From Thermodesulfobacteriota bacterium (GTDB lineage Bacteria; Desulfobacterota; Desulfarculia; JACQYL01), in the NCBI GenBank assembly GCA_963675595.2, contig CAXXLZ010000001.1, positions 160,001 through 224,000 on the forward strand: a DNA stretch of 64,000 bases. Direction: 5' to 3'. Positions 23,938 to 45,386 of this stretch are shown here, one piece after another. The notes under the pieces were generated by a model. That model was not told the DNA's origin and made no database searches. It saw only the letters and a program-made list of their open reading frames with translations. The translations under genes were made by a program, and so were the position numbers. Position 1 is the first letter of the stretch. Every line of letters starts with the position of its first letter.

Positions 23938-24859
23938 GTGCGCCAGGCGAAGCTCTGGCGATCCTGGCGGATGAAAGTTCCGCCCGCGGTAATTGCCTGT
24001 TCACCGCGAAGTCGCCGGCCCGGCGCGCAGGGGTAACCCGAGGCGTCAAGCGGGCCGGAAAAGGCCGTAAGGTCAGATAGAGTGCAGGCCGTAACGCAAG
24101 TGAACTCGCTTCGGCCTCGTTACACGCATGGCGGCGGTGACCTTCCACGTATATGGGGAAACCTGCCAATGGTGCGATGGGAAAACAGGAGCGTCGCACC
24201 ATGCCGCCCGGGGCGTTTGGAGACGGCATGTACTCGAAGGAGCGCCGGGGAACCCGGGAGACCCGGCGGGACGGGCAGGGCGGCAGGTAGCCCGAGTCCA
24301 AACGGCGGCGGGGAATACATAACCCGCTGCACGGTCCCGGCCGGGAGTCGGACTTGCCCATAGTAGCGAAGAAGTCCTGGAAACAGGATGGAGCCAAGGG
24401 GCAGGACTTTGATCGTGTTTCGGACGAATGGAGGAAGAACCGCTTGGACGGAAAACGTCCCACTACGGATCGGGTCAAGCCGGAAAATGGAGTGGCCGCC
24501 AAAGTCTCCCTTCTTCGGATGAAACTGGGCCTCAAGGCCAAGCAAGAACCGGCCACAACCGGTTCCGTCGATTCATGAAGACGAGGAGCCACCGGCGCTG
24601 TCAACACCTGGACGGGCCGTCGCTGTATGCGGCGCTGCGCACGAAAGGGGTGGTCTACCTGCATGAGAAAGCCGTCAACTCCTTGCGAATGCCTTGTCGC
24701 TGAAAGGTCATCGGAGAGCCGGATACGGGAAATCCGCACGTCCGGTTCGACGAGGGGGCGCTGTCGGTAAGTAAGATTAGACGACACGTAGTAGCTGCGT
24801 GCAGCGAGGCGTCACTAAAAGTCGGCCTGAACTCCTTTGCCGTCAGGGCTCTACTCTAC
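23938..24859 (+). mobile_element. Group II intron, internally deleted (RT/maturase ORF mostly lost)
   Basis: 5' GTGCG at 23938. Domain V GAGCCGGATACGGGAAATCCGCACGTCCGGTTC (AGC triad) at ~24716-24748. 3' end CTACTCTAC at 24851-24859. The IEP N-terminus (KVSLLRMKLGLKAKQEP) abuts a domain-X-like C-terminus (RFRRFMKTRSHRR...LYAALRTKGVVYL) in another frame, with no YADD core. Confidence 0.88.
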
Positions 24860-31686: not shown

Positions 31687-34140
31687 TCAGTTTTCATTCT
31701 TCCCCAAGACTCTATGAATGGCATCGGTGAGTTGATACGTACTGACGGGCTTGGTGATCAACTCGGTTATGCCCAGGTCCCTGGCGGCGACTTCGATGGT
31801 CTTGCCGAGATAGCCGGACATGAGAATGACGGGAATGGATATCCCCGCCTCCTTAAGGGCGCTTATCAGGTCCAACCCGCTGAGCTTGGGCATGGAATAG
31901 TCTGTGACGATGACGTCGAAATCGGCGGGGTTCTCTTTGATCGCCGTCAGTGCGTCTACGCTGTCCGTGAAGGAGGTCACCGTATAGCCGCAATTGACCA
32001 GAATGGACCGCATGGAATCGGCTATGGCGGTCTCATCATCCACCACGGCAACCTTCTCCGTGCCCCTCGTAACCGACTCCTTCGGATGATACGATGGTGG
32101 ATCATCCATTTCTATGGCCGGGATAAGAATATTAAATGTCGTGCCTTTTCCGACCTCGCTGTAGGCCGTGATGATTCCGCCCAGGCTCTTGACGATGCCG
32201 TGCACTACGGAAAGTCCGAGCCCGGTGCCCTCACCTTGAGATTTTGTGGTGAAAAAAGGCTCGAATATGCGATCCAGCAGTTCCGGTTCAATACCGCGGC
32301 CCGTATCCGAGACGCGCAGAAGAACGTGTTTCCCTCGCTTGATATCGGGATGGGTGCGCGCGTAGTCTTCGTCCAGGAAGTAATCTTGGAGCTCCAGCTT
32401 GATGGTGCCGGCGGCGCCCCCAATGGCGTGGACCGCGTTCGTAAAGAGATTCATAACAACTTGGTGCAGCTGGGTCGGTTCGGCCATGACCGCGGAACCG
32501 CAATCCATGTTCGTTTCAATATTGATCGTTGAAGGGATGGAGGCTCGCAGAAGCTTCAGTGTTTCCTTGAGCACCGATTCCGGTAACAAGGGCCTGAGTT
32601 CAAAATCCGTCTTCCGACTGAAGGTGAGAATCTGGCCGACGAGATCACGCGCTCTCTCGGAAGCCGTCAATATCTGGCTGATGTAGTTTTCAACATCCGG
32701 TATGGAATCTTTTTTCATCAGGATCAGCTCGGAATACCCGAAGATCACGTTGAGGATGTTGTTGAAGTCGTGAGCGATTCCACCGGCCAGGGTGCCTATG
32801 GCTTCGAGCTTCTGCGCCTGGTTGAGTTTCTTCTCGAACACGGTTTCAGCGGTAATATCACGTGCTATTTCAAGGTAACCCTGTATGCCGCCTCGATCGT
32901 CTCTGAAGTTCACCAGCATGACATCCAACGTAATGGGGTCCGGGTAGTTTCCGTGCAGCACAACGCGACCGGACCAGGGAATGCCGGCCTCCAGGGAAGC
33001 CCAAATTTCGGACGGCGCTATGTTGTGGGGATTCGTCAGGACAGGCTCCGTTCCAAGGATGTCTTCGACTCTAAGACCGGTAATTCTCTCATAAGCGGGA
33101 TTTGCGTAAGTAATCTTCCGATCCAACCCTACCTGTAAAATGATTTCGTTTGAGTGATAGGTAACTTGTTTCATCATATCCATAAGTTTGACTATTGGGT
33201 TGCTCACTTTGCTGTAAAAGAATACGATTATAATTATTGTAATCAGCAAAAAAATGATACCGCTAATGAAAATGGAAAGCAGTATTCTGTTCACAGGTAC
33301 CATGATTTCGGATTTGCTCTGTGTAAATGCCGTGATCCAACCCGTGGTCTGCACATGGTCGATACCTACGATCATCTTGACGCCGTCGAAAGTGTAGTCT
33401 ACGGCGCCTCTCTTCCCTCCCATAAGTATCTTCATGAGCTCTTCCGACCCGGGCTGATCCAGAAGGTTCAGGTGAAGAATAAATTCTTTCTTGGGATGGA
33501 TCAGAATGAGTCCTTGTGAGTTCATGAGAAAGGCGTATCCGGTCTGACCGAGCTTTTCTTGAGAGATAACATTAACGATAAAATCAGTGGTAATTGCGAT
33601 GGCTATGATTCCGTAAAACTCGTTATGGTCTTCAATCGGGGCGGAGATCACGACAATGGGGTTTTCGGGTGTCGCCTTTCCCCTGGGAAAGTACGGCCCG
33701 CCTACGCATGGGGCGCCTTTCCGCGCGCCGATGAAGTATTCCCGATCAGAGATATCCAGGCCGATCTGTTGAGGGAAAAAAGGGTCTTCTCTGATGATTC
33801 CCTGCCGGTCGGCCAGGAAAATAGTGAAGAACTTCTTGCCTACCCGTCCGTAAATATTTGTCAGTTCCAAGGAAGCAATTTGATAATCCTCCGTTTTCGC
33901 GGCGGCGATCACATCCAGGTCCGATGCAATCGTTTCAGCCAATTTCATTTCCTCACTCAAAGTAGCATCGATTAAGACGGATACATTATTGGCGATACGA
34001 ACGGAATTGGCCTTAGTCATCTCCAACAGGGATCGGGAAAGCTGAATATAGATAATGACTGCTACAAGGGTGAAAGGAATGAAAACGGCGGCTATACCGC
34101 CGAGTACCAATCGGTGCTTTAGGGGAAGGTCCTTAGCCAT
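31687..34140 (-). CDS. Hybrid sensor histidine kinase (dCache-PAS-HisKA-HATPase-REC)
   Basis: Two TM helices flanking a Cache domain; GIAHDFNNIL H-box; GTGLGL G2 box; REC domain with VTDYSMP. Confidence 0.92.
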   Translation of the reverse strand: MAKDLPLKHRLVLGGIAAVFIPFTLVAVIIYIQLSRSLLEMTKANSVRIANNVSVLIDATLSEEMKLAETIASDLDVIAAAKTEDYQIASLELTNIYGRVGKKFFTIFLADRQGIIREDPFFPQQIGLDISDREYFIGARKGAPCVGGPYFPRGKATPENPIVVISAPIEDHNEFYGIIAIAITTDFIVNVISQEKLGQTGYAFLMNSQGLILIHPKKEFILHLNLLDQPGSEELMKILMGGKRGAVDYTFDGVKMIVGIDHVQTTGWITAFTQSKSEIMVPVNRILLSIFISGIIFLLITIIIIVFFYSKVSNPIVKLMDMMKQVTYHSNEIILQVGLDRKITYANPAYERITGLRVEDILGTEPVLTNPHNIAPSEIWASLEAGIPWSGRVVLHGNYPDPITLDVMLVNFRDDRGGIQGYLEIARDITAETVFEKKLNQAQKLEAIGTLAGGIAHDFNNILNVIFGYSELILMKKDSIPDVENYISQILTASERARDLVGQILTFSRKTDFELRPLLPESVLKETLKLLRASIPSTINIETNMDCGSAVMAEPTQLHQVVMNLFTNAVHAIGGAAGTIKLELQDYFLDEDYARTHPDIKRGKHVLLRVSDTGRGIEPELLDRIFEPFFTTKSQGEGTGLGLSVVHGIVKSLGGIITAYSEVGKGTTFNILIPAIEMDDPPSYHPKESVTRGTEKVAVVDDETAIADSMRSILVNCGYTVTSFTDSVDALTAIKENPADFDVIVTDYSMPKLSGLDLISALKEAGISIPVILMSGYLGKTIEVAARDLGITELITKPVSTYQLTDAIHRVLGKNEN

Positions 34141-35176: not shown

Positions 35177-35578
35177 TCAATCCAGATAGGCCTCTTTGTG
35201 CTCCAGGCCGCCCTCCACATAATGCTTCACGGCCTCATCAATCTTTTCGATGTCCGTAGCCACTACCCTGACGCCGGCGGTGGTGAAATGACGGAAGGCT
35301 CCGGTACCGATCTTGTGCACGATCAACGCCTCGCAATCTTTGAAGGTTTCGAACATGGCGCCGTGCCTGCGTTCAGCCTCCGGACCGAACCCGTGCCGTC
35401 CCTTCTCATCGGTCAGGGGATGGCCTGCTTCTCCTGAGAACTCCGGGTGCCCCGGCTTGACTCTGATTTCCTTGGCGACGACTCCATCGGGTCCCACAGT
35501 CGCCACGAGAATGTAGCTGCTTCCCGCGAAATGCTCGGCAATGTTCTCTTTATCGTGGGTTACGATTGCGATCTTCAT
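35177..35578 (-). CDS. NifB/NifX-family iron-molybdenum cluster-binding protein
   Basis: MKIAIVT...IAEHFAGS, His-rich insert, DCEALIVHKIGTGA. Confidence 0.8.
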   Translation of the reverse strand: MKIAIVTHDKENIAEHFAGSSYILVATVGPDGVVAKEIRVKPGHPEFSGEAGHPLTDEKGRHGFGPEAERRHGAMFETFKDCEALIVHKIGTGAFRHFTTAGVRVVATDIEKIDEAVKHYVEGGLEHKEAYLD

Positions 35579-35842: not shown

Positions 35843-37105
35843 CTAGAACTCGACGGCGAGCTGAGTGGTGAACAGATCCCGGGAATCCAATCCGTCGTCG
35901 TTATCGTCGAAGTCGCCGTGGAGATACTCGAAGGACAGGGTGGTTCCCGCGAAGAGTTCCCAGCCGAAAACGGCGCCGAAGTTGGATTCCGGATACAAGC
36001 CGAACAAATCCTTGGAACCTTCATACTTGGCGGCGATTTGGAATCGGTCGAGAAAGCCGTAACCCAGCTCGACATTCCAGGCCGCCGGTTTGGCCTCCCG
36101 ATCTTCCCCGTCCAGCACGGCGAACCCCAATTCTCCGGGCTCGAAATCGCTCAATGCGGTCACGTATTCGAGGTTCAGGCCGAAGGAAGCGTAACTCAGC
36201 GTGAAGTGTCCGGCGAGACCGGGGATGGAGTCTTCGAGGGTATCCACCGCCACCTCATCCTGCAGGGTGTCCGTATCCACCATATTGAACAGAAACCCGA
36301 CGCCCACGTTGAAGGACAGGTCTCCAAAGGAGCCTTCCGGGTTGAATACGTCGATGTTGAAAAAGAGATTGTTGATATGATCGTTTTCTTCCGTGGAAAC
36401 GTCTCCATTGAAGCCGCCGAAGGATGCATAAAGCCAATCGCCGGAATAGCCCACGGCGGCTGCGCTTTCCTGAATTTCACCGATCTCCAGGGTCAACGGG
36501 TCGGACACGAAAAAGGTCTCAAAAGGGGAAAACGGAGGATAGAAACGCCCCGCCAGGAGGAACCACGGGAAGTCGGGTGTGGCTCCCAATGTGATGGTGG
36601 CTTCATCCAGGTCCACGGGTTCCGTGTCGTCCTCCTCCCACAACAGGATCATATGGGCGTTGACGTATTTGTGAACGGCGGCGTCCAATTCGATTTGAGC
36701 GGTGGCCAAGCTGATGTCGCTGCTCTCCTCGTCTTTGGCGTTCTTCTTGGTCAGCTTCTCATATCCGGCTTCCACTTCGACCACGCCGTTGATGGAGACT
36801 CGTTCCGCGAGTTCATCGAGGATGGACCGCATATCCTTCTGGCGCCGACCCACGGACTCGAGTTCCTGCGAGATTCGTTCGTTTTCGGATCGAACCTGCT
36901 CGAACCCCGGGTGCTTCGCGGGGGCTGCTCCTTGAGCCCCTACGCCGCGGCCTTCGAGCATCTTCTCCAATTGTTGCACTCGCTCCTTCATCGTCTCCAA
37001 TTCCCGCATCAGATCGTAATTGGACATCTCCTCGGCGTAAGCCGGGAAAGAAATCAGAGACCCGCATGCGAGCATCAATACCAAAATTCGCACCAACTTC
37101 TTCAT
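35843..37105 (-). CDS. LbtU-family (siderophore/iron) outer-membrane porin
   Basis: Signal peptide, coiled coil, INGVVEVEA, LDEATI, SDPLTLEIGE, C-terminal QLAVEF. RBS GGAGG before the ATG at 37105. Confidence 0.82.
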   Translation of the reverse strand: MKKLVRILVLMLACGSLISFPAYAEEMSNYDLMRELETMKERVQQLEKMLEGRGVGAQGAAPAKHPGFEQVRSENERISQELESVGRRQKDMRSILDELAERVSINGVVEVEAGYEKLTKKNAKDEESSDISLATAQIELDAAVHKYVNAHMILLWEEDDTEPVDLDEATITLGATPDFPWFLLAGRFYPPFSPFETFFVSDPLTLEIGEIQESAAAVGYSGDWLYASFGGFNGDVSTEENDHINNLFFNIDVFNPEGSFGDLSFNVGVGFLFNMVDTDTLQDEVAVDTLEDSIPGLAGHFTLSYASFGLNLEYVTALSDFEPGELGFAVLDGEDREAKPAAWNVELGYGFLDRFQIAAKYEGSKDLFGLYPESNFGAVFGWELFAGTTLSFEYLHGDFDDNDDGLDSRDLFTTQLAVEF

Positions 37106-37155
37106 TTTACTCTCTCCTCCGTTCAAGTTTCTTCCATAGTAAATTTCGACTGTTG

Positions 37156-37169
37156 TTAGACTATCCTCA
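37156..37169. promoter_or_regulatory. Putative DtxR-family operator in the porin leader
   Basis: TTAG-ACTATC-CTCA, one mismatch from TTAG-N6-CTAA. Confidence 0.5.
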
Positions 37170-37237
37170 ACACCGGTTCTGTGTTGCATCCTTTATGAAG
37201 TCGTCAGGTCCTGGTGAACCACCTCCTCTCCGGTCGG

Positions 37238-37320
37238 AAAAAAAGGCGCAAGAGGCTTCATAGGGATAGAAGCCTTCCTGCGCCTTCACTTGCCCCTCCA
37301 TGTATTGGAGCCCTTAAGAC
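37238..37320 (-). ncRNA. Conserved leader RNA/attenuator, copy A (upstream of the porin)
   Basis: GUCUUAAGG-GCUCCA..UGGAG..-AAGUGAAGGCG-stem-CGCCUUUUUUU. TATAAT lies 7 nt upstream. Confidence 0.72.
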
Positions 37321-37546
37321 GATATCGATTATATAATTTAATGATGCTTATACTTCAGGTCGTATATGGATTACATATGACTTTCGGAACGACAGTTATC
37401 GCAAATTTATGCAAATATTGCTCAAGTCATGTACAGTGACATTCAAAACTCGGAAGAGTCGACTATAATACGGATAGAACCTCTTTCTCGGTTTCAATAG
37501 GTTGAATTGCGGCATACGGATGTATCCTGAGTTTTCGGCTCATACA

Positions 37547-37705
37547 CTATTCTTTGTCCTCCGAAGCGGAGGTCGGCTTGCCGCAGCAGGCTTCGCAGCC
37601 CCCACAAGCGCATGACGAGCCGCCTCTTTTCAGATTCGCGGAAAGACGTCGGTACAAATATAAGATCGCAATGGCGACAATGACGATTACAATGATGGCA
37701 TCCAC
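37547..37705 (-). CDS. FeoB-associated Cys-rich membrane protein (52 aa; below the ORF-track cutoff)
   Basis: Hand translation from GTG 37705: MDAIIVIVIVAIAILYLYRRLSANLKRGGSSCACGGCEACCGKPTSASEDKE*. One TM helix plus a CxCxxCxxC cluster, within the feo operon. Confidence 0.82.
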   Translation of the reverse strand: MDAIIVIVIVAIAILYLYRRLSANLKRGGSSCACGGCEACCGKPTSASEDKE

Positions 37706-37915
37706 TTATCAGACCTGTCTTATCGTTATTACCCATTGATGATTTCTTGCGGCCATGTCCGAATACCTTGTCGGCCGGGAATACAAGAGTCGGAGCTTCG
37801 CTCCTTGTTTCCCGGCCGAACGGACGGCCGAGGTTGATGATGCCGACCGCCTCGTTCGTGATAGGCGATTCGTTGGTTGGGGGAGGTTCCGTGATCGGCC
37901 TCTCCGCAAGTTCTT

Positions 37916-38716
37916 CTATTTCATGTCCACGGCCTTGACCCAGATCACCGCGTCCTGGGACAGTTCCTTCCCTTTGTATTCCGTGTCGGGACCCACGCCC
38001 AGAGCGCAAAATCCCCACCATCCCGCTCTGGGAATGCCGAAGGAGAACTCACCGTTTACATTGGCTTTGATGGTCATGGTGACAAAGGCGCTTTGGGGTG
38101 CTTCCACTTGGCCTTTTTCGGCAAAGGCGTTCTTGGCCGGAAGCGGCTCGTGGTTCAGGTATTCCATTTCAATTTCGGCATAGGGCACGGGCTTGCCGTT
38201 GCTTTTGACGATCCCTCTGAAGACGTTGCCGGTCCAGAGGGCGTAAGGTTTGTCCAGAGGGACGATCTCGGCCGGTAAACCGACTTCCGTGTCCCAGTCC
38301 GTGGGAAATCCGCCGGTGTTGACCACCACTTTGGTGATTTGCTGGATATAGCTGTCTTCTTCCGATTCGAAATAGGGCGACGGAACCAGACAGAACACAT
38401 TGTCTCCCATGCCTCGCAGCCTGTAGGTGGTATCGTAGGCCGCTCCTTTATTGGACAGACCGGCCCAGGTAATGGGCCGCAACTTCTGCAGAAGGTCCTC
38501 CTTCTTTCCCTTGCGAACGACGAAGAACTGCTCGGGTTTGCCCATATCCATGGTGTGTCCCGCTTCAAAGGGGTGTGTGAAAACCAGCTTGAGGTCGATG
38601 GTTTGTGCTTTCTCCAGTGCCGCTTCCGGCGTATAAATCATCTGAAAGTGGGCGGATGCGGATCCCGTCAGGCCCATCAACATCAAACCGGTCAACATTA
38701 CGGTGAGTTTCTTCAT
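37916..38716 (-). CDS. DUF4198 periplasmic metal-binding protein
   Basis: Signal peptide followed by mature N-terminal His (ASA-HFQM); EIVPLDKPY; GWWGFCAL. Confidence 0.85.
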   Translation of the reverse strand: MKKLTVMLTGLMLMGLTGSASAHFQMIYTPEAALEKAQTIDLKLVFTHPFEAGHTMDMGKPEQFFVVRKGKKEDLLQKLRPITWAGLSNKGAAYDTTYRLRGMGDNVFCLVPSPYFESEEDSYIQQITKVVVNTGGFPTDWDTEVGLPAEIVPLDKPYALWTGNVFRGIVKSNGKPVPYAEIEMEYLNHEPLPAKNAFAEKGQVEAPQSAFVTMTIKANVNGEFSFGIPRAGWWGFCALGVGPDTEYKGKELSQDAVIWVKAVDMK

Positions 38717-38836
38717 GAATGTAACTCCTTTCTCGATCCTTGTTGTTTTCCGTTTACAGACAGTTTGTTGTGTTTTCGTAAACAGTGATGTTTAGAAAGT
38801 TGATTAGGTGATTAACGATCATTTCGGAGCGATGTT

Positions 38837-39166
38837 CTACTCAAAAATATCCTTTCCGTCTGTCCTTATGATGTGCCCTTCTCCGGCATCGAAGACTACG
38901 GTGTAGTCACCGGAAGGCTTCTTGAAGGTGAATTCGCTGTCTTGATCCATTTTGCCTTTGATCAATACTTTTCCGTTGCCGTCTTCAACTCGCATCTCTA
39001 CGCCGGCGGCCGATGAACCGTCGGAGAAGCCTCCTTCGCAAGTAATTGTGGCGTCCCCATTGTCGTAGCATGAGCAAAGCGGGGTGTGGGCCGAGGCGAT
39101 TCCGGCGGACATCAGCCCAACGATTATAATTGCGATAAGAATCAGTTTCCGTTCCATCATGAACAA
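38837..39166 (-). CDS. Small periplasmic protein (CbiL/NikL-like)
   Basis: Signal peptide, mature N-terminus HTPLCSC, CEGGFSDGS, FDAGEGH. Confidence 0.7.
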   Translation of the reverse strand: MFMMERKLILIAIIIVGLMSAGIASAHTPLCSCYDNGDATITCEGGFSDGSSAAGVEMRVEDGNGKVLIKGKMDQDSEFTFKKPSGDYTVVFDAGEGHIIRTDGKDIFE

Positions 39167-39178
39167 TCCTCCATTTTG

Positions 39179-41647
39179 TTAAACGTATCTTGGTTTATTA
39201 TTGATCAATCCCATCAGGATAGTGAATCCCACCGCCAAACCATAGAAGGCGAACATGGCCTGCAGACCGGACAGGCCCAAGGCTCTTCCGCCGGAGAAGA
39301 CCACGGTCGCAGCCAGCAGCCCCAGCACCATGGGGTAGGCCATGGAGAACAGCATCCATTTGGTGGACCCGGCCTGTAGTTTGACCGTGATGGCGGTTGC
39401 AACGCAGGGAGGATAGAGCACCATAAACAACATCAACGCCAGGGCGTGCAGAGGTGTGAAATCCGTCTCCCCCTCGGCCATACGCTGTTCAAGGGCTTGG
39501 CCTTCCTCCTCTTGTTCGTAAAGCGCTCCCAAGGTGGCCACGCTGCTTTCCTTGGCTGCGAGGGCGCTGAGCAGCGCCACGTTGACTCGCCAGTTGAAAC
39601 CGGCCCACTGCGTAGTGGGTTCCAGCGATTTGCCCAGTCTTCCCAGAAAGCTGTTATCGATGCGCTCCTTGCGCATTTCCCTGAGGAGCCCTTTGCGCTC
39701 TTTGAGCAGAGCCTTGAAGGCTCGATTGACCTTTCGCGCGACCTTGTCCTTGCCGGGTCGGACAATGCCGAAGAAGAGCGGATTCCGCGTTTCGAACCGA
39801 TCATTGACCTCTTCCATGGCCTCCCGGCTTCGGACTCCCATTTGGGCGTCTTTGTACTGGTCCTGGAAAAGAGCTAGTTCCATGAGATTTCCGGGACCCA
39901 GTTTCTCCGCATAGGAGGTGTTTCCGATTTCGTCGAAAAAGGTGTTGAGGACCCTGTCTTTCTCCTGATGGTAATGGACCATCCGTTCGTTGCCGATTCC
40001 CGGAAACTGAAGGAGAACGAAGATGACTACGGCCACGGCGGCCACGATGGTGGTGATCTTCCTCATGAACAGCCACACACGCTCGGCCGCCCTTCCGAGA
40101 ATTCCACGAATCGTCGGCAGGTGATAGGGCGGCATTTCCATGACGAAAGGGGCCGTTTCCTTGTTCTTGAGGACCGTCATGGTCAGTATTTTGGCCACGG
40201 GAAGCACGAAAAAGAGACTGATGGTGGAGATGAAAAACATGGCCCAGGCCTTGTGGGCCGCGAAGTAGATGTTCACCAAAAGGACATACAGCGGCACCTT
40301 GGCCAAACAATTGAGCATGGGAATGATCAGGATGGTGGCCAGCCTGGATCGTTCGTCGGGGATGCCTTTACACGACATCACCCCGGGGACGGCGCAACCG
40401 CCGACATAGATTCCGCCCAGAACCATGGGTAGGGTGGACTGCCCGTGCAGACCGAAACGGTTGAAGATTCTGTCCATCATGAAGGCCATGCGCGGCATGT
40501 AGCCGCTGTCTTCCAGGATGGCGATGAGGCCGAACAGGATGAAGAAGATGGGGATGTAGTTCAGCAAGGCGTTGATGCTGTCCATGAACCAGAGAGCAAA
40601 AGAACGGAGCAGGGGCACTTCGATGAAGCCCGGATCGGGTGTCAGCGACTCCACAAGGCTCCTCAGTTTTGCCAAGTAGGGCCAAGTGTAATTGGTGAGG
40701 TTGTACCCCTGAACCACCGAGAGGTAATAAAGGAGCCAGATGACGCCCACCATGATCAGGGGTCCCAGGATGCGGTGGCACACAAAACGATCGATTTTGT
40801 CGGAAAGAGGGGTCTTCCTCGCCCCTGTGGGTTTGATGCACGATTTGGCGATGTCGTCCGCCGCACGATATCTCCGGTTGGCTATATACAGTTCCGGCAT
40901 CTCGCCGTATCGGGCTTCGAAATCCGCCCTCATCTTATCCACGAATGCCGGAAGGGATTCGGCGTCCGAACAGTTTTCTTCAATCAGCCGTCGGGCTTCA
41001 CGGTCGCCTTCCATGAGTTTGATGGCCATCCATCGAAGGGGATAGTCCGTTGTCGGGAAGGTCAGCGTGGAGAGCCTGTCCACGATGTCACGAAAGAAGG
41101 GTTCCATTTCGCCGTAGTCGATGTTGGCCGCCTTGGTCGTAGTCGTCGCCTCGGAAACGGCTGTAATGGCATCCAGCAGTTCTTTCTTGCCTCGACCGCT
41201 CTTCATGGTGGTGGGGACGACATGGATGCCCAACATTTTGGAAAGCGCCCCTACGTTGATGTCGACTCCGCGTTTTTCCGCGACATCCATCATGTTCAGG
41301 TCCAGAATCACCGGGATGTCCATTTCCAGCAGTTGGAACGTAAGATACAGGCTTCGTTTCAGATTGGAGGCATCCATGACGTTGACGGCCACGGAGGGCT
41401 TTTCGTGCAGGATGAAATCCCGTGAAACGCGCTCCTCGGGCGAGTAGGAAGTGAGGCTGTAGGTGCCGGGCAGGTCGACCACTTCGATCTTGGCGCCGTT
41501 GTGCCTGTACCGGCCGACCATCTTGTCGACGGTGACGCCGGGATAGTTGGCCACGTGCTGGCTCGCACCGGTAAGTGAGTTGAACACGGTGGATTTGCCG
41601 CTGTTGGGTTGGCCGGCAAGGGCCACCAAGCATCTTTGAGCTTTCAC
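39179..41647 (-). CDS. feoB: Ferrous iron transporter B
   Basis: GQPNSGKST, NYPGVTV, DLPGTYS, NMMD, LEDSGYMPR, YPPC and multiple TM segments. Confidence 0.96.
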   Translation of the reverse strand: MKAQRCLVALAGQPNSGKSTVFNSLTGASQHVANYPGVTVDKMVGRYRHNGAKIEVVDLPGTYSLTSYSPEERVSRDFILHEKPSVAVNVMDASNLKRSLYLTFQLLEMDIPVILDLNMMDVAEKRGVDINVGALSKMLGIHVVPTTMKSGRGKKELLDAITAVSEATTTTKAANIDYGEMEPFFRDIVDRLSTLTFPTTDYPLRWMAIKLMEGDREARRLIEENCSDAESLPAFVDKMRADFEARYGEMPELYIANRRYRAADDIAKSCIKPTGARKTPLSDKIDRFVCHRILGPLIMVGVIWLLYYLSVVQGYNLTNYTWPYLAKLRSLVESLTPDPGFIEVPLLRSFALWFMDSINALLNYIPIFFILFGLIAILEDSGYMPRMAFMMDRIFNRFGLHGQSTLPMVLGGIYVGGCAVPGVMSCKGIPDERSRLATILIIPMLNCLAKVPLYVLLVNIYFAAHKAWAMFFISTISLFFVLPVAKILTMTVLKNKETAPFVMEMPPYHLPTIRGILGRAAERVWLFMRKITTIVAAVAVVIFVLLQFPGIGNERMVHYHQEKDRVLNTFFDEIGNTSYAEKLGPGNLMELALFQDQYKDAQMGVRSREAMEEVNDRFETRNPLFFGIVRPGKDKVARKVNRAFKALLKERKGLLREMRKERIDNSFLGRLGKSLEPTTQWAGFNWRVNVALLSALAAKESSVATLGALYEQEEEGQALEQRMAEGETDFTPLHALALMLFMVLYPPCVATAITVKLQAGSTKWMLFSMAYPMVLGLLAATVVFSGGRALGLSGLQAMFAFYGLAVGFTILMGLINNKPRYV

Positions 41648-41868
41648 GAGAGTTCCACCTCTACGAACCGGGCTTCGTTGTGCCTCAGAGTCACGAAGTA
41701 TCCCTCCAACTCCACTTCCATGGGGTCTTCAAGAGGGGCGTTCCGAATGACTTTGAGTTTCAATCCCGGATATACGCCCATATCCAGAAGCCGTTGGCAT
41801 AACCTGTCGCGGACCGCCAGCCTCTTGATGAGGCATTCCGTGCCCGGTCCCATTTGATCCAGCGTCAT
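41644..41868 (-). CDS. feoA: Ferrous iron transport protein A
   Basis: RLLDMGVYPG...NAPLEDP...LRHNEA; overlaps the feoB start. True start is the ATG at 41868. Confidence 0.93.
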   Translation of the reverse strand: MTLDQMGPGTECLIKRLAVRDRLCQRLLDMGVYPGLKLKVIRNAPLEDPMEVELEGYFVTLRHNEARFVEVELS

Positions 41869-41894
41869 GGCTCGATTTCCTTTCCCTGTCGGAG

Positions 41895-41985
41895 AAAAAC
41901 AAAAGGCGTAACCGGGCGCGCACGACGCGCCTGAGATTACGCCTTCACTTCCTTCGCACCGATGGACGGTCGAAGGCCGTAAGAG
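41895..41985 (-). ncRNA. Conserved leader RNA/attenuator, copy B (upstream of feoA)
   Basis: CUCUUACGG-CCUUCG..CGAAGG-AAGUGAAGGCGUAA-stem-UUACGCCUUUUGUUUUU, between the promoter and the feoA RBS. Confidence 0.75.
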
Positions 41986-41998
41986 CAATCTTGCTTGC

Positions 41999-42057
41999 TT
42001 AGATACTTCTATCTGGTAGAGACGCCCCTAATTTACAGACCGGCTTCTTCTTGTCAA
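41999..42057 (-). promoter_or_regulatory. feoA sigma70 promoter overlapped by tandem DtxR-type boxes
   Basis: TTGACA(42057-42052)-16 bp-TAAATT(42035-42030). Boxes TTAG-ATACTT-CTAT (41999) and AGAG-ACGCCC-CTAA (42018). Confidence 0.65.
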
Positions 42058-42369
42058 GATATTTCTGAATGACCCTGAACGTGACTCAACGTTCTTCGCT
42101 GTCCTCCCCACTTTCCGCTTTCAGACGAGAGGCCGACACACGACGGAAGAGATTCCGAGCCGATCCGTCGCCGATCATCGTTCGTCCGATGCAGCTTTCC
42201 AGGCAAAGCCGCCTCAGACACTGTTTGGACCTTATATCGAGACAGCGGAAATCCGCCGCGCATACGCGACCTTCCAAAAGGAGCCGAACCACCGTTTCTT
42301 CGGCGATTTCAACGCGGACGCTCTTTCCGGACGCGGCGTGCATGAAGGACTCAACAGAGCGGATAGGGC

Positions 42370-42735
42370 TCAATTCCGCCGCTTTTTGTCCGAGCAAGGG
42401 CAATTCACACAATTCCCATTGCACCGGCACGGCTCTTTCGGGGGCACGATGACCTTGCTGCCTCTGAGTGCGATTTCGTACCCTTTTTCGCCTTTGAAGA
42501 AGAGCCGATCCGCCGGCAGTCTGTTTTTGTCCAGGTTCCGCCGAAAGGTGCTGCATCCGAAGGGGTCCATTTCTCGAAGGCTGTGGGTGTCTGTAAAGAC
42601 TCGCCCCGTCCCGTCATATTGTTCATGAAGCAGGTTGATCAACTCGCATGCCGAGGTTCCGTCGAAGTCTCCTCTTGTGCTTACGTGCAGGTTCCCGTTG
42701 CTCTTTTTAAATGCGACTCTGAAGTTGGCGCTCAT
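42370..42735 (-). CDS. STAS/anti-sigma-antagonist-like small protein with a C-terminal Cys cluster
   Basis: LHVSTRGDFDGTSACELI...FTDTHSLREMDPFG is STAS-like; tail CRCNGNCVNCPC. Confidence 0.7.
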   Translation of the reverse strand: MSANFRVAFKKSNGNLHVSTRGDFDGTSACELINLLHEQYDGTGRVFTDTHSLREMDPFGCSTFRRNLDKNRLPADRLFFKGEKGYEIALRGSKVIVPPKEPCRCNGNCVNCPCSDKKRRN

Positions 42736-42785
42736 CCTTTTCCTCCGAAACGTCTTTCCGTGATGGATCAGTGGAGACTATCGGC

Positions 42786-44024
42786 CTATGTATTCATATC
42801 CGAAATGGCCTTGGAAACAGCCGTAAGGCTCGAGTTGGCCAGCATATGAACCGGCTTTCGATGCTTCTTTCCAAGATTCTTCACTACGGAGCAGGCCGCG
42901 TGACTGTTACAGTTGATTGGACAGAGGACAATATCGGCTCGTTTCAGACGAACCTCCAGACTCTTGGAGCCGCTTCTCATGTAACCATCGTGATAGTCGA
43001 ACACGCCCCCGTTGTTTTCGATAATATCTCGATAACGGGATTCCATCTTGGTGATTCCTCCTACGATCAAGATTCGCTTCTTGCAGAGATCGAAAGAAGG
43101 GCAACTCTCATCACAACGTTTCATATTTGCAAGTTGCACCATCTTATCCCGATTCTCCCCCACCAGACGGAGGTTCGCTTGGCTCAGACGTTCAACTTCG
43201 GAGGCGAACGCCTCGTTCTTGCTCATGAGCGAATCGATCCGGAGTTGTTGCTTTCGGCAGGTTTCCTCCCACATGGCGACTTCTTCCCTAAGCCTCGCAT
43301 TCTCCCCCTCGATTCGCGAGAGTTCCCTTCGATCGGCTCTCCCGGCGATTTGTTCCTCCTGTCGAACCAGGTTCTTTTCAGCGGAACCCAGACTAGCGGC
43401 CAATTCTTTCCTATCCTTCTCCAGGTGCGCGTTTTCCTTCTGCAAAGCGCGTCTAAGCTTTGCCGCGTCTTTGAGCTCAGTTCTCATGTCTTCCAGGCGT
43501 CGGGCCCGCCTTTCCATTTCTCGGCGAAGTTTCATAACCTGGGTGCCGCTCCAATGCATGGTCATATGTATTTCTCCAAAGATTTCCTTCTTTGCTTCTT
43601 TGGACAACCTAGGGTGAATCGCAGCGGCATAGAGAATCCCCAAGTAATCTCCGGAGGCGAAAGCGGACTTCCATCGCAAAATGAAGTCCTCTTGAGAAAG
43701 TTGGAGCAGTGAGAACGCTTCTTTCCCGAAGTTGCGACTCAGGAAATTTTCCACCTTCCTCGAAAGTCGATTTTCGTCTTCCAAACTTGCGACAATCAGC
43801 TCATGGATTTCGAAAGGAGTCTTGTCTTTGAAAGAATAGCCCGCTCGTTTGAGAAACTGTTTTTGGTCCGCTAAAGGCAGGCACATGCCTACTACGGGGC
43901 ATTTGTAACAGTGTTCGATCTCCCACAGTTTCAGCGGTGTAATTCGGTTTGGTACACGATTTAGATAGGCAAGATCGCCCAATTGATCGTAGGCCTGAAC
44001 AGAAGTTTCATAATCGGTCGTCAT
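42786..44024 (-). CDS. DUF2325 domain protein (N-terminal Cys motif, coiled coil, C-terminal DUF2325)
   Basis: LWEI..CYKCPVVGMC, a long coiled coil, ILIVGG...HDG...ADIVLCPINCNSHAAC. RBS AAAGGA precedes ATG 44024. Confidence 0.82.
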   Translation of the reverse strand: MTTDYETSVQAYDQLGDLAYLNRVPNRITPLKLWEIEHCYKCPVVGMCLPLADQKQFLKRAGYSFKDKTPFEIHELIVASLEDENRLSRKVENFLSRNFGKEAFSLLQLSQEDFILRWKSAFASGDYLGILYAAAIHPRLSKEAKKEIFGEIHMTMHWSGTQVMKLRREMERRARRLEDMRTELKDAAKLRRALQKENAHLEKDRKELAASLGSAEKNLVRQEEQIAGRADRRELSRIEGENARLREEVAMWEETCRKQQLRIDSLMSKNEAFASEVERLSQANLRLVGENRDKMVQLANMKRCDESCPSFDLCKKRILIVGGITKMESRYRDIIENNGGVFDYHDGYMRSGSKSLEVRLKRADIVLCPINCNSHAACSVVKNLGKKHRKPVHMLANSSLTAVSKAISDMNT

Positions 44025-44071
44025 TGATCCGTTCCTTTCCATGTACATAATTATTCAAATCGCCGTTTTAC

Positions 44072-44156
44072 AAAAAAAGGCGTATCTCGATCGTCGATCC
44101 ATCGAGTTACGCCTTCACTGCTTCCTCACTCATCAAGAGAGTGGGAGCCGTAAGAC
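44072..44156 (-). ncRNA. Conserved leader RNA/attenuator, copy C (upstream of DUF2325)
   Basis: GUCUUACGG-CUCCCACUC..GAGUGAGGAAG-CAGUGAAGGCGUA-stem-UACGCCUUUUUUU. Confidence 0.75.
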
Positions 44157-44170
44157 ATCCCGGGACTACA

Positions 44171-44464
44171 TCAATCTGCGTCGATCAGCGTTTGTGTAAG
44201 CTTCTTGCGCAATGCCTCAAGCGTCTTTGACTTGAAGGCCTTTCTGCTTTCCTCCAAGATTTCTATGGCTTCCTTAATTGCGATTTCCAGTTTGACTTCT
44301 CTGGACCGCTTGGGACAGAGACTCAAGAGCGCCAACAGGTCGTTTTCATCCACCCGATTCTCCAAAATGGAGGACATGAGGCGACAATGCATTTCCATGT
44401 TCTCCTGCAACTCTTGGAGATTGGAGTTGAGAGCGTCGAGAATGTCCGTTTTTTCCAAGCCCAT
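44171..44464 (-). CDS. Small helical hypothetical protein, first gene of the iron operon
   Basis: Coiled-coil-like sequence with a basic C-terminus (IKEAIEILEESRKAFKSKTLEALRKKL). ATG 44464 is preferred because the upstream ATG (44497) lies within the operator. Confidence 0.75.
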   Translation of the reverse strand: MGLEKTDILDALNSNLQELQENMEMHCRLMSSILENRVDENDLLALLSLCPKRSREVKLEIAIKEAIEILEESRKAFKSKTLEALRKKLTQTLIDAD

Positions 44465-44468
44465 AATT

Positions 44469-44501
44469 CTAGTCGGTCCTTTTGGTGTTTGAGTCATCTA
44501 A
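44469..44501. promoter_or_regulatory. Tandem putative DtxR-type boxes
   Basis: CTAG-TCGGTC-CTTT (44469) and TTTG-AGTCAT-CTAA (44488), 19 bp apart. Confidence 0.55.
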
Positions 44502-44840: not shown

Positions 44841-45386
44841 TCAGTCGGCCTTGATGGAATCCACCCGCTGCTTGAACTCACTTGAAAATTCCTCGGTACG
44901 TTCCATACACTTGTCGGCTCTGCGGCCGTGTCGGCGAAACTCTTCGAAATACTGGAGCCAGCTTTTCCCGGCCCGTGGACAGGTTCGGATGAACTCGACG
45001 AAATCCGTCAAACTGTCCAAAGTTTCCGGACTCAGAGTGTGCTCCATCTTACAGGCCTCGGCATCCGCCGTCTCGAAATCGATTTTCAATATCTCGGTGA
45101 GAAACTCACGAAGTATCTCATGCCTTCGCCGCATTTCCCTTCCCACATCGGCTCCGTCCCGTGTCAGTTCCACGTACTCGTATTTTTCATAATGGACCAA
45201 GCCTCGGTCGCTCAGGGTCTTGAGCATGCTGGTGACCGTGGGCATTTTGACATCCATCCGTTTGGCGATGTCCTTAACCCGAACGACTCTCTTTTCCTCA
45301 TCAAGTTCGAAAATCGCTTCCAGATAATCTTCCATGACGGAGGTCAACGGCTTTGCCGCCAGATGATTTGTCTCTTGTGCTACCAT
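44841..45386 (-). CDS. DtxR/MntR-family metal-dependent transcriptional repressor
   Basis: MEDYLEAI, HTH RVKDIAKRMDVKMPTVTSML, RRHEIL, EACKMEH; C-terminal Cys extension. Confidence 0.93.
   Translation of the reverse strand: MVAQETNHLAAKPLTSVMEDYLEAIFELDEEKRVVRVKDIAKRMDVKMPTVTSMLKTLSDRGLVHYEKYEYVELTRDGADVGREMRRRHEILREFLTEILKIDFETADAEACKMEHTLSPETLDSLTDFVEFIRTCPRAGKSWLQYFEEFRRHGRRADKCMERTEEFSSEFKQRVDSIKAD

Follow-up and report, generated by a model that had tools for sequence, protein, structure and literature searches.

Iron uptake in bacteria is, in the textbook view, controlled at the protein level by Fur, DtxR, and IdeR. Among leader RNAs, small riboswitches of the ON type in which a stem-internal loop-stem overlaps the terminator include NAD+-I domain 1, xanthine/NMT1, HMP-PP thiS, Li+ nhaA-I, and Na+ DUF1646, and a compact layout in which the 3′ strand of the aptamer is also the 5′ strand of the terminator is that of known ON switches. 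The subject of the present study is a leader RNA, three copies of which (A, B, and C) are located on the minus strand of a 64,000-nucleotide stretch of DNA, the window, from a Thermodesulfobacteriota bacterium (contig CAXXLZ010000001.1, positions 160,001 to 224,000), ahead of genes for an LbtU-like porin, for FeoA and FeoB, and for a DUF2325 protein. These copies probably belong to an undescribed family of cis-acting 5′-leader RNAs that control transcription elongation into iron-acquisition genes. The leader RNA is like the small ON-type riboswitches in its compactness, in having its conserved bases concentrated at an internal loop and along the strand that the terminator also uses, and in its variable peripheral hairpin, but its gene context differs and it has no Rfam 15 match to any of them.

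The nearest functional relatives of the leader RNA are the NiCo/czcD riboswitch class and, at the regulon level, Fur. In section 3.3.4 of a 2024 review of metallostasis, NiCo/czcD is the only riboswitch class treated as a sensor of Fe(II); it has a four-way junction, controls efflux genes, and is reported to respond to Fe2+, Co2+, and Ni2+, although its metal selectivity is disputed (PMC11672702). The leader RNA resembles this class in being a cis-acting element tied to transition-metal homeostasis, but is a single irregular hairpin followed by a terminator, is found before uptake genes, and gives no cmscan match to this class. In NiCo/czcD, a transcriptional ON switch, the terminator is kept from forming when the aptamer is bound, whereas the leader RNA is ON-type only by proposal. 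A Fur regulon predicted for Geobacter and Desulfovibrio contains feoAB, porins, an HD-domain protein, an AraC-type regulator, a P-type ATPase, and ExbB/TonB genes, and several of the gene classes behind the leader RNA overlap with it (PMC545781). However, Fur is a protein that acts on a 17-bp DNA palindrome, whereas the leader element is transcribed, structured, and strand-specific.

Results

Three copies in the window

Direct reading of the sequence at all three sites bears out the minus-strand layout described in the initial annotation, consisting of (G/C)UCUUA(C/A)GG, a hairpin (P2), (A/C)AGUGAAGGCG, a long stem-loop, and CGCC with a U-run, the hairpin and the stem-loop being unrelated in sequence from copy to copy; AGUGAAGGCG is at 37290-37281 in copy A, 41949-41940 in copy B, and 44119-44110 in copy C. 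Copy A (37238-37333; covariance model match 37239-37333, 54.7 bits, E = 4.6e-10) is composed of UCUUAAGG (37319-37312), P2 (37311-37292), AAGUGAAGGCG (37291-37281), and a terminator stem-loop with U-run (37286-37238) that ends in CGCC and the U-run. Copy B (41895-41998; match 41899-41998, 63.6 bits, E = 4.6e-12) has UCUUACGG (41984-41977), P2 (41976-41951), AAGUGAAGGCG (41950-41940), and a terminator (41945-41901) that is followed by the U-tract UUUUGUUUUU to position 41895. In copy C (44072-44169; match 44073-44169, 68.8 bits, E = 3e-13), a 5′ flank, CGGGAUG, precedes UCUUACGG (44155-44148), P2 (44147-44121), CAGUGAAGGCG (44120-44110), and a terminator (44115-44072) with its U-run at 44078-44072. 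When applied to the window, the covariance model returned exactly these three copies at E ≤ 5e-10, the next matches being reverse-strand terminator halves with E ≥ 0.02. The 10-mer AGTGAAGGCG has three exact matches in the window, all on the minus strand, compared with about 0.1 expected in 128 kb by our arithmetic; with up to one mismatch, four were found versus 4.16 expected from a shuffle control, a comparison that says nothing about the exact matches.

The three copies have hairpins of different sequence between their conserved strands, and each copy still folds far better than its shuffled sequences (z-scores of −4.1 to −4.7), so that the earlier description of conserved junction strands joined to hairpins that vary yet still pair holds. 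The terminator hairpins have predicted energies of −21 to −28 kcal/mol and are followed by 4-7 U; copies A, B, and C each have the GC-rich stem-loop directly before a U-run that characterizes intrinsic (Rho-independent) terminators. Copy C begins about 15 nucleotides (nt) past the stop codon (44173-44171) of an upstream open reading frame (ORF, 44171-44497), and its terminator could also end the transcript of that ORF. The separation of about 380 bp between copy B and the upstream stop, given in the initial annotation, is correct for ORF 42370-42735 but not for ORF 42086-42556, which ends inside the promoter region; neither ORF matches any protein family, and the latter is unsupported.

Other copies and spread of the family

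Five copies were found in the 6.8-Mb genome at E ≤ 1.3e-8 with the covariance model, the next match having an E value of 0.6. A search of the same genome with the composite pattern TCTTAMGG-N12-42-RGTGAAGGCG gave four matches, all on one strand, and none with the reversed control. Copy D (G000:C2:854222-854314, or L001:6222-6315; minus strand), found with the composite pattern, precedes the gene for a 228-residue HD-GYP-type (HD_5) protein. Copy E (G000:C1:705776-705873, or L145:1501-1598; minus strand), found with the covariance model, precedes a gene for a secreted Cys-rich protein of 250 residues, which has a CICRCLC motif and no family match; in this copy ACGA replaces ACGG and AUUG replaces AGUG, changes that look paired.

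Within the same order, one of four other genomes has the motif, in two copies. In a 401-genome sample of the phylum, the composite pattern was present in 15 genomes, and the reversed control pattern gave seven matches overall; the 22 matches outside the source genome comprise 16, in eight genomes, that have the hairpin and terminator and six that are chance-like. A stricter pattern with 21 core bases fixed, scanned over one genome per prokaryote species, gave at least 113 stretches with at least 131 distinct instances; most of the collected instances that make up the sets of 119, 123, 126, and 130 used below were retrieved with this pattern. Their labels are mostly Desulfobacterales, Desulfosarcina, Desulfonema, Desulfatiglans, Syntrophobacteraceae, Desulfarculia, and metagenome-assembled genomes named “Deltaproteobacteria,” together with a few outlier bins (Nitrospirota/Thermodesulfovibrionales, Acidobacteriota, WOR-3, Zixibacteria, Anaerolineales, Thermotogota, and Altiarchaeota). 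In five of the outlier bins the motif is on a single contig each, and mis-binning is possible for short contigs. With the covariance model, 14 of 26 genomes of one Desulfobacterota family were found to have the motif, in 1-8 copies per genome, but only six of 151 genomes in an even sample of the phylum, and the motif is therefore lineage-restricted within the Desulfobacterota. The search of other genomes that the initial annotation had proposed as a check consequently yields a family of at least 131 instances, mostly from Desulfobacterota. As far as checked, the feature, which is real and widespread, has no earlier description, and we regard it as a new RNA family and regulon based on a known regulatory principle.

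Units of the motif occur in tandem at locus L141. At L025 (1380-1455, minus strand), and likewise at L009, a divergent second unit with AAGGGAGGGCG in place of AAGUGAAGGCG lies directly behind the first terminator; it lacks a terminator and continues into the GAGGAGG ribosome-binding site (RBS) of a DUF2325-type gene, and may represent a translational variant.

Conserved sequence and covarying structure

An alignment of 126 instances, the first four rows of which are copies C, B, A, and D, gives the family consensus (ARGGRAUG)-UCUUACGR, then P2, which is variable in sequence and often has a bulged G, then A-AGUGAAGGCGUAAC, a loop, and GUURCGCCUUUUUU. Conservation extends beyond the retrieval pattern to the 5′ flank ARGGRAUG (G9 in 117 of 126, G10 in 111, U13 in 110, and G14 in 121), to A64 (120 of 126) and C78 (117 of 126), and to the 3′ side of the terminator base; the sequence at the base of this stem, GGCGUAAC/GUURCGCC, is unusually conserved. 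CGCCUU and the U-run, with at most one substitution, are present in 126 of 130 instances tested. In matches found only with the covariance model, the core is near-invariant: position 15 can be any base, A19 is often replaced by G and G22 by A, C20 is replaced by U in some cases, and changes in U17, A70, G71, and G72 are rare.

Changes on both sides were found at all nine pairs of P2, with 81.5% of cells paired, and at 10 of the 17 pairs of the terminator, with 84% paired; none of 500 shuffles reached the observed values, and slid partners were 37-53% paired. The test of covariation called for in the initial annotation thus comes out in favor of both structures, and on this comparative basis P2 and the terminator are established. 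P2 has a pronounced strand bias, with pyrimidines 5′ and purines 3′; pairs 24-62 to 27-59 are almost never inverted, a bulged G is frequent, and the loops vary in length and sequence across the alignment.

Alternative pairing of the terminator strand

Pairing is possible between the 5′ strand and the 5′ half of the terminator through U18-A69 or U17-A70, C16-G71, U15-G72, G14-C73, U13-G74, and A12-U75, and in most family members the helix extends past a GG/AA mismatch by G9-C78 and A8-U79. In RNAfold calculations on the nascent RNA, in which the 3′ strand of the terminator is not yet present, at least five of the seven antiterminator pairs form in 113 of 126 sequences, whereas the terminator is formed in 123 of 126 full-length sequences. 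The nascent fold is one long irregular hairpin made up of the antiterminator helix, a bulged A69, the pairs U18-G68, A19-U67, and C20-G66, a G21G22/A64A65 loop, and P2. Copies C and B fold into this long hairpin (−23.9 and −26.8 kcal/mol, respectively) and copy A into a six-pair CGUCUU/AAGGCG helix. The pairing of the 5′ strand with the terminator base that the initial annotation had seen is consequently real as a potential pairing and is the favored nascent fold. The ACGG/AGUG internal loop described there stands as a loop but is probably smaller, since C20-G66, A19-U67, and U18-G68 can pair and variants at these positions stay compatible with pairing, leaving a GG/AA 2 × 2 loop and the bulged A. 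The two pairings are mutually exclusive: in these models AAGGCG(UAAC) pairs either with the 5′ strand or with CGCCUU, so that the predicted expression platform overlaps the aptamer, as in riboswitches.

In 69 covariance-model matches (64 distinct rows), 88% of the extended helix is paired, and at six of its 12 pairs both partners are changed at least once; this alignment was not fitted to the extended helix. Together with the changes at the nine pairs of P2, these values give the candidate aptamer the conserved, covarying structure expected of a riboswitch. Individual cases of compensation include L153, in which C-G replaces U17-A70 and the terminator has the corresponding U-to-C change; the second copy of L141, in which C16-G71 is changed to U-A; and L052 and L190, in which G74 is changed to A opposite U13, together with C124 to U. 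In A19-to-G and C20-to-U variants, wobble pairs are kept. As a potential pairing, the antiterminator has good support, whereas its support from covariation is weak.

Genes and promoters associated with the motif

The first downstream ORF, defined as an ORF of at least 60 codons on the same strand, was identified for the 119 instances with enough sequence. Its distance from the motif has a median of 42 nt and is no more than 100 nt in 99 of the 119. The Pfam families among these ORFs are FeoA (33), DUF2325 (22), OprB porin (5), TonB-receptor Plug (3), DUF3450 (3), HU-like (3), HD_5 (2), Nitro_FeMo-Co (2), extracytoplasmic function sigma factor (2), and AraC (2), with single cases of FeoB, FeoC, ExbB, and P-type ATPase; the rest are without a family, and some of them are spurious short ORFs arising from simple ORF picking. 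The motif therefore has a consistent place in the 5′ leaders of a coherent gene set that includes the classes for iron uptake, as is found for riboswitches, and its homologues are not scattered irrespective of gene function, an outcome against which the initial annotation had proposed to check. Directly behind the leader at L037, L047, L048, L062, L087, and L032 there are ORFs of about 70 codons that share an ...INCRS(C/R)LG... cysteine motif and have no Pfam family.

A sigma-70-like promoter, TTGACA-16-TAAATT (42030-42057, minus strand), is predicted about 45 nt upstream of the UCUU of copy B from its consensus match alone (10 of 12 positions), and a promoter-like site was noted by eye upstream of copy E. 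Using simple criteria, sigma-70-like sites were found at varied distances upstream of 18 of 123 instances. In copy A, a −10-like hexamer, TATAAT, ends 8 nt before UCUU (37320-37333), a spacing that recurs at L082 (6661-6674, TATAAT) and L071 (5255-5268, TATTGT); similar palindromes, CGATATCG or ATCGATCG, follow the hexamer in copy A and L071. This arrangement may mark a leaderless-flank subclass or an operator site, and some leaders probably start at the motif, lacking the ARGGRAUG flank. A search of the window for the δ-proteobacterial Fur box TGAAAATNATTTTCA, with up to three mismatches, gave six matches versus 2.4 expected, none in a promoter of the motif; one is inside the DUF2325 coding region, and no other is near the window copies.

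Comparison with catalogued RNAs

With gathering thresholds, cmscan of the whole window with Rfam 15 gave no family on the motif and two matches elsewhere, both to group II intron domains on the plus strand (23965-24099, RF02003, 63.4 bits; 24714-24859, RF00029, 42.6 bits), which suggest that there is probably a group II intron about 13 kb from the leader RNAs. When the threshold was relaxed to E ≤ 10 for positions 36900-44500, the sole overlap was a chance match of Plastid-psbA-2 to the terminator of copy A (23.5 bits versus 55.8, E = 0.63), and at E ≤ 1 nothing was found on the motif in 15 homologous loci. The NiCo/czcD, yybP-ykoY (Mn2+), M-box (Mg2+), and cobalamin classes, and any other family in Rfam 15, can thus be rejected, as there is no match even at permissive E values; this agrees with the earlier comparison by eye with the NiCo/czcD, yybP-ykoY, and cobalamin consensus. 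A full-text literature search found no description of the leader RNA, although it could be listed in supplementary tables of riboswitch-discovery papers or in subscription journals, which were beyond the reach of the search. The earlier suggestion that the element is possibly undescribed is in keeping with both searches.

ANTAR targets have two tandem stem-loops, of which the second overlaps the terminator; their hexanucleotide loops have A1 and G4 conserved. The leader RNA, in contrast, has one hairpin, P2, before the terminator, with a variable loop and an inter-strand stretch of 17 to about 40 nt, and is not an ANTAR target. It shares with the targets of ANTAR proteins, RAT/BglG, HutP, and PyrR a hairpin that competes with a terminator and a regulon that sometimes begins with a gene for a candidate regulator, but its P2 loops are variable and there are no GAG or UAG repeats. 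The iron-responsive element bound by aconitase/iron regulatory protein has an apical CAGUGN loop with a bulged C five pairs below it; in the leader RNA, AGUG is on the 3′ side of the internal loop/helix rather than apical, and the preceding base is A, not C, in 120 of 126 instances. A resemblance to the ACGR of Guanidine-II was also rejected, since these bases are not in apical loops here.

Neighboring genes

The gene behind copy A (35843-37105, minus strand) matches the NCBIfam model NF033652 for LbtU-family siderophore porins with 261.4 bits against a cut-off of 90, in agreement with the assignment in the initial annotation; it starts at ATG 37105 behind the RBS GGAGGAG (37120-37114). Downstream of the porin gene on the minus strand are genes for a NifX/NifB-like Nitro_FeMo-Co domain protein (35177-35578), a family that is also encoded by the first gene behind the motif at two other loci among the matches listed, and for a hybrid dCache-PAS histidine kinase with a receiver domain (31687-34140). 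Copy B precedes an operon (39179-41868, minus strand) of feoA (41868-41644; Pfam FeoA, 6.4e-18) and feoB (41647-39179; FeoB_N, 6.3e-63, with Gate, FeoB_C, and FeoB_Cyto). The region between feoB and copy A (37494-39166, minus strand) contains a NikL-like fragment of an energy-coupling factor transporter subunit (NCBIfam, below cut-off), a DUF4198 protein (2.4e-57), and a 175-residue ORF without a family; judging from this content, the locus may handle more than one transition metal.

The DUF2325 gene behind copy C is the only one in the genome. Its longest ORF is 42786-44048 on the minus strand (Pfam PF10087, 5e-26), but ATG 44024, behind GGAAAGGAA, is likelier as the start. In an alignment of its homologues, which have about 415 residues, a helical N-terminal domain with an invariant CPxxGxC and histidines is followed by a pair of long helices, about 140 residues, indicative of a coiled coil; next come a Cx3CPx4C motif and a C-terminal α/β DUF2325 domain carrying CPxNCNSHxAC. 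The protein looks like a metal- or Fe-S-binding protein. An AlphaFold2 model of it (predicted local distance difference test score of 79.4, predicted template modeling score of 0.39) had zero Foldseek matches in the PDB at E ≤ 0.001; its C-terminal domain showed only a weak resemblance to receiver-like or flavodoxin-like folds in the PDB, with no pointer to RNA binding. A DUF2325 protein of Campylobacter is reported to be PerR-regulated (PMC9426514). Two ORFs upstream of copy C there is a gene for a metal-dependent repressor of the DtxR/MntR family (44841-45386, minus strand; Pfam Fe_dep_repress, 1.9e-21, and Fe_dep_repr_C, 3.2e-21), whose NCBIfam MntR/DtxR matches fall under their cut-offs; it is a possible context for control at transcription initiation, outside the RNA itself.

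Discussion

The comparisons above show membership of a family, the structures of P2 and the terminator, the association with a gene set, and the mutually exclusive pairings. The layout, in which AAGGCG(UAAC) serves first an antiterminator hairpin and later a more stable terminator, is that of a transcription attenuator, and we consider it likely that the RNA is a regulated terminator/antiterminator leader. From the arrangement of its sequences, we infer that the competition is regulated, as well as its direction and its effector, in the following scheme. During synthesis, G14 and UCUU, often extended by ARGGRAUG, would pair with AAGGCG(UAAC), which is also the 5′ half of the terminator; with the UAC/GUG pairs, the GG/AA internal loop, the bulged A, and P2, this helix would complete a single long, irregular hairpin, the antiterminator. 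After synthesis of the 3′ strand of the terminator, the more stable terminator would displace the antiterminator hairpin unless the latter is held. The terminator should win unaided, because the minimum-energy folds of the full-length RNAs form it. An effector that binds at the conserved internal-loop region would stabilize the antiterminator and allow read-through; the candidate site consists of G21, R22, A64, A65, the bulged A69, the U-G pairs, and G10 G11/A76 A77, because the near-invariance of these bases is not explained by helix formation. Since read-through requires a held antiterminator, an ON-type switch is the most economical reading, and we consider the chances of this direction to be slightly better than even. 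The effector should report the iron or transition-metal status of the cell, because the regulon comprises ferrous-iron uptake and related genes.

Whether this effector would be a small ligand or ion, making the RNA a true riboswitch, is in our estimate about evenly balanced. A small ligand is favored by a defined core that is conserved across lineages, with peripheral stems of variable length and tandem units, and by the fact that neither protein tested is universal, CsrA being found in three of five carrier genomes and DUF2325 not found in one of six, which speaks against either as an obligatory partner. A more specific version, for which the case is tentative and falls somewhat short of an even chance, is a riboswitch class that reads iron status directly and governs the whole ferrous-iron regulon (feoAB, porins, TonB systems, DUF2325, and HD-GYP) in anaerobic Desulfobacterota and some other anaerobes. 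Its ligand would be Fe2+ or a metabolite that accumulates in iron shortage, a candidate being an unmetallated tetrapyrrole precursor in siroheme-rich sulfate reducers.

Several observations weigh against the proposed ON-type leader. Since 21 core bases were imposed by the pattern used for retrieval, their invariance is partly by construction, and only about 45 matches found solely with the covariance model test it. Covariation for the antiterminator is thin, with few compensatory changes; position 15 varies freely opposite a rarely changing G72, copy D forms almost no antiterminator, and a metagenome scan for U17 variants gave four matches (three distinct), none of which is compensated at A70, a result that does not decide for or against the helix. 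For uptake genes to be under an ON switch, the signal would have to increase in iron shortage, which argues against Fe2+ itself as the activating ligand. Within the genome, the motif precedes only one of three FeoA-domain genes, and control of iron by proteins coexists with the RNA in the form of the DtxR/MntR-type repressor at the locus and four Fur-family proteins in the genome. Because such protein-based control is present, the RNA probably adds a second signal to control at initiation rather than replacing it.

The same competition between RNA structures could instead be governed by an RNA-binding protein, either an apo form of an Fe-S or metal protein or a product of the regulon such as DUF2325, which we regard as possible but rather unlikely. 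The leader would then be a case of protein-dependent antitermination, as with HutP, PyrR, BglG, or ANTAR proteins, and no riboswitch. The candidate aptamer, one irregular hairpin that is modest in complexity and has neither a pseudoknot nor a junction of several stems, would suit a protein target, and the purine/pyrimidine bias of the strands of P2 suggests recognition of the helix itself. Genes for the Cys/His-rich DUF2325 proteins are directly behind the motif in 22 of the 119 cases listed, as those for antiterminator proteins often are, and an apo-protein easily provides an ON signal in iron limitation. The sequence ARGGAUGU, found in the 5′ flank of most but not all instances, resembles the consensus for CsrA obtained by systematic evolution of ligands by exponential enrichment. 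However, CsrA (PF02599) was not found in two of the five carrier genomes, G017 (98% complete) and G144 (99% complete), and G144, in which the motif precedes feoA, also has no detected DUF2325. The model of DUF2325 offers neither a PDB fold match at E < 0.001 nor a hint of RNA binding, and, as several labeled phyla carry the motif, a widely conserved or co-transferred protein would be needed.

An OFF-type metal sensor, in which Fe2+ or another divalent metal binds the RNA and favors the terminator so as to silence uptake genes at high metal levels, would make the leader an RNA analogue of Fur resembling the Mg2+ M-box. It is the simplest physiological fit, as feoAB, porins, and TonB-type genes are iron-repressed in studied relatives (PMC545781), and the internal-loop guanines G21, G22, G66, G68, G10, and G11 could coordinate soft metals, as reported for the NiCo class (PMC11672702). 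The unusual conservation of the base of the terminator stem would also be in keeping with it, but is explained by the need to fit two partners. Moreover, no alternative partner was found that would sequester the 5′ antiterminator strand in the bound state, and a single hairpin accommodates both the antiterminator and the UAC/GUG pairs. We think that an OFF-type sensor is improbable. The proposed ON-type leader shares its compact layout with known ON switches.

It is very unlikely that the terminated RNAs of about 95 nt are themselves the functional products, a family of trans-acting small RNAs like the iron-sparing RyhB/PrrF, encoded beside iron genes, for which read-through is incidental. A separate small RNA could be expected from several copies, which have a promoter-like site and a strong terminator; genomes have 1-8 copies, and conserved single-stranded or weakly paired stretches could serve as seeds. 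However, the next ORF on the same strand, at the median distance given above, usually leaves no space for a separate promoter, tandem copies (L141) and the terminator-less copy that runs into an RBS (L025) are in keeping with a leader but not with a gene for a small RNA, and conservation falls on the bases that take part in the two alternative pairings. Ordinary intrinsic terminators or a dispersed repeat of the repetitive extragenic palindromic or miniature inverted-repeat transposable element type, recently duplicated and with no regulatory role, are hardly credible: each copy does end in a canonical terminator and copy C is close behind a stop codon, but the hairpins differ yet pair, with compensatory changes at nine of nine P2 pairs that rule out a duplication artifact, the conserved parts are outside and at the base of the terminator, only five copies are present in 6.8 Mb, and in many genera the element occurs strand-specifically with a single functional set of genes.

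As a widespread mark of the Fe(II)-uptake regulon in sulfate-reducing and syntrophic anaerobes, the leader RNA would constitute a new regulatory layer for a nutrient that is essential and of environmental importance. It would also be a handle on regulon members of obscure role, the DUF2325, small Cys-rich, and HD-GYP proteins. With more than 130 instances, including cultured carriers with complete genomes, the family is large enough for biochemistry. Should a ligand bind directly, the RNA would be a compact natural sensor of iron status, and if it reads that status for the whole ferrous-iron regulon, it would be an RNA counterpart of Fur.

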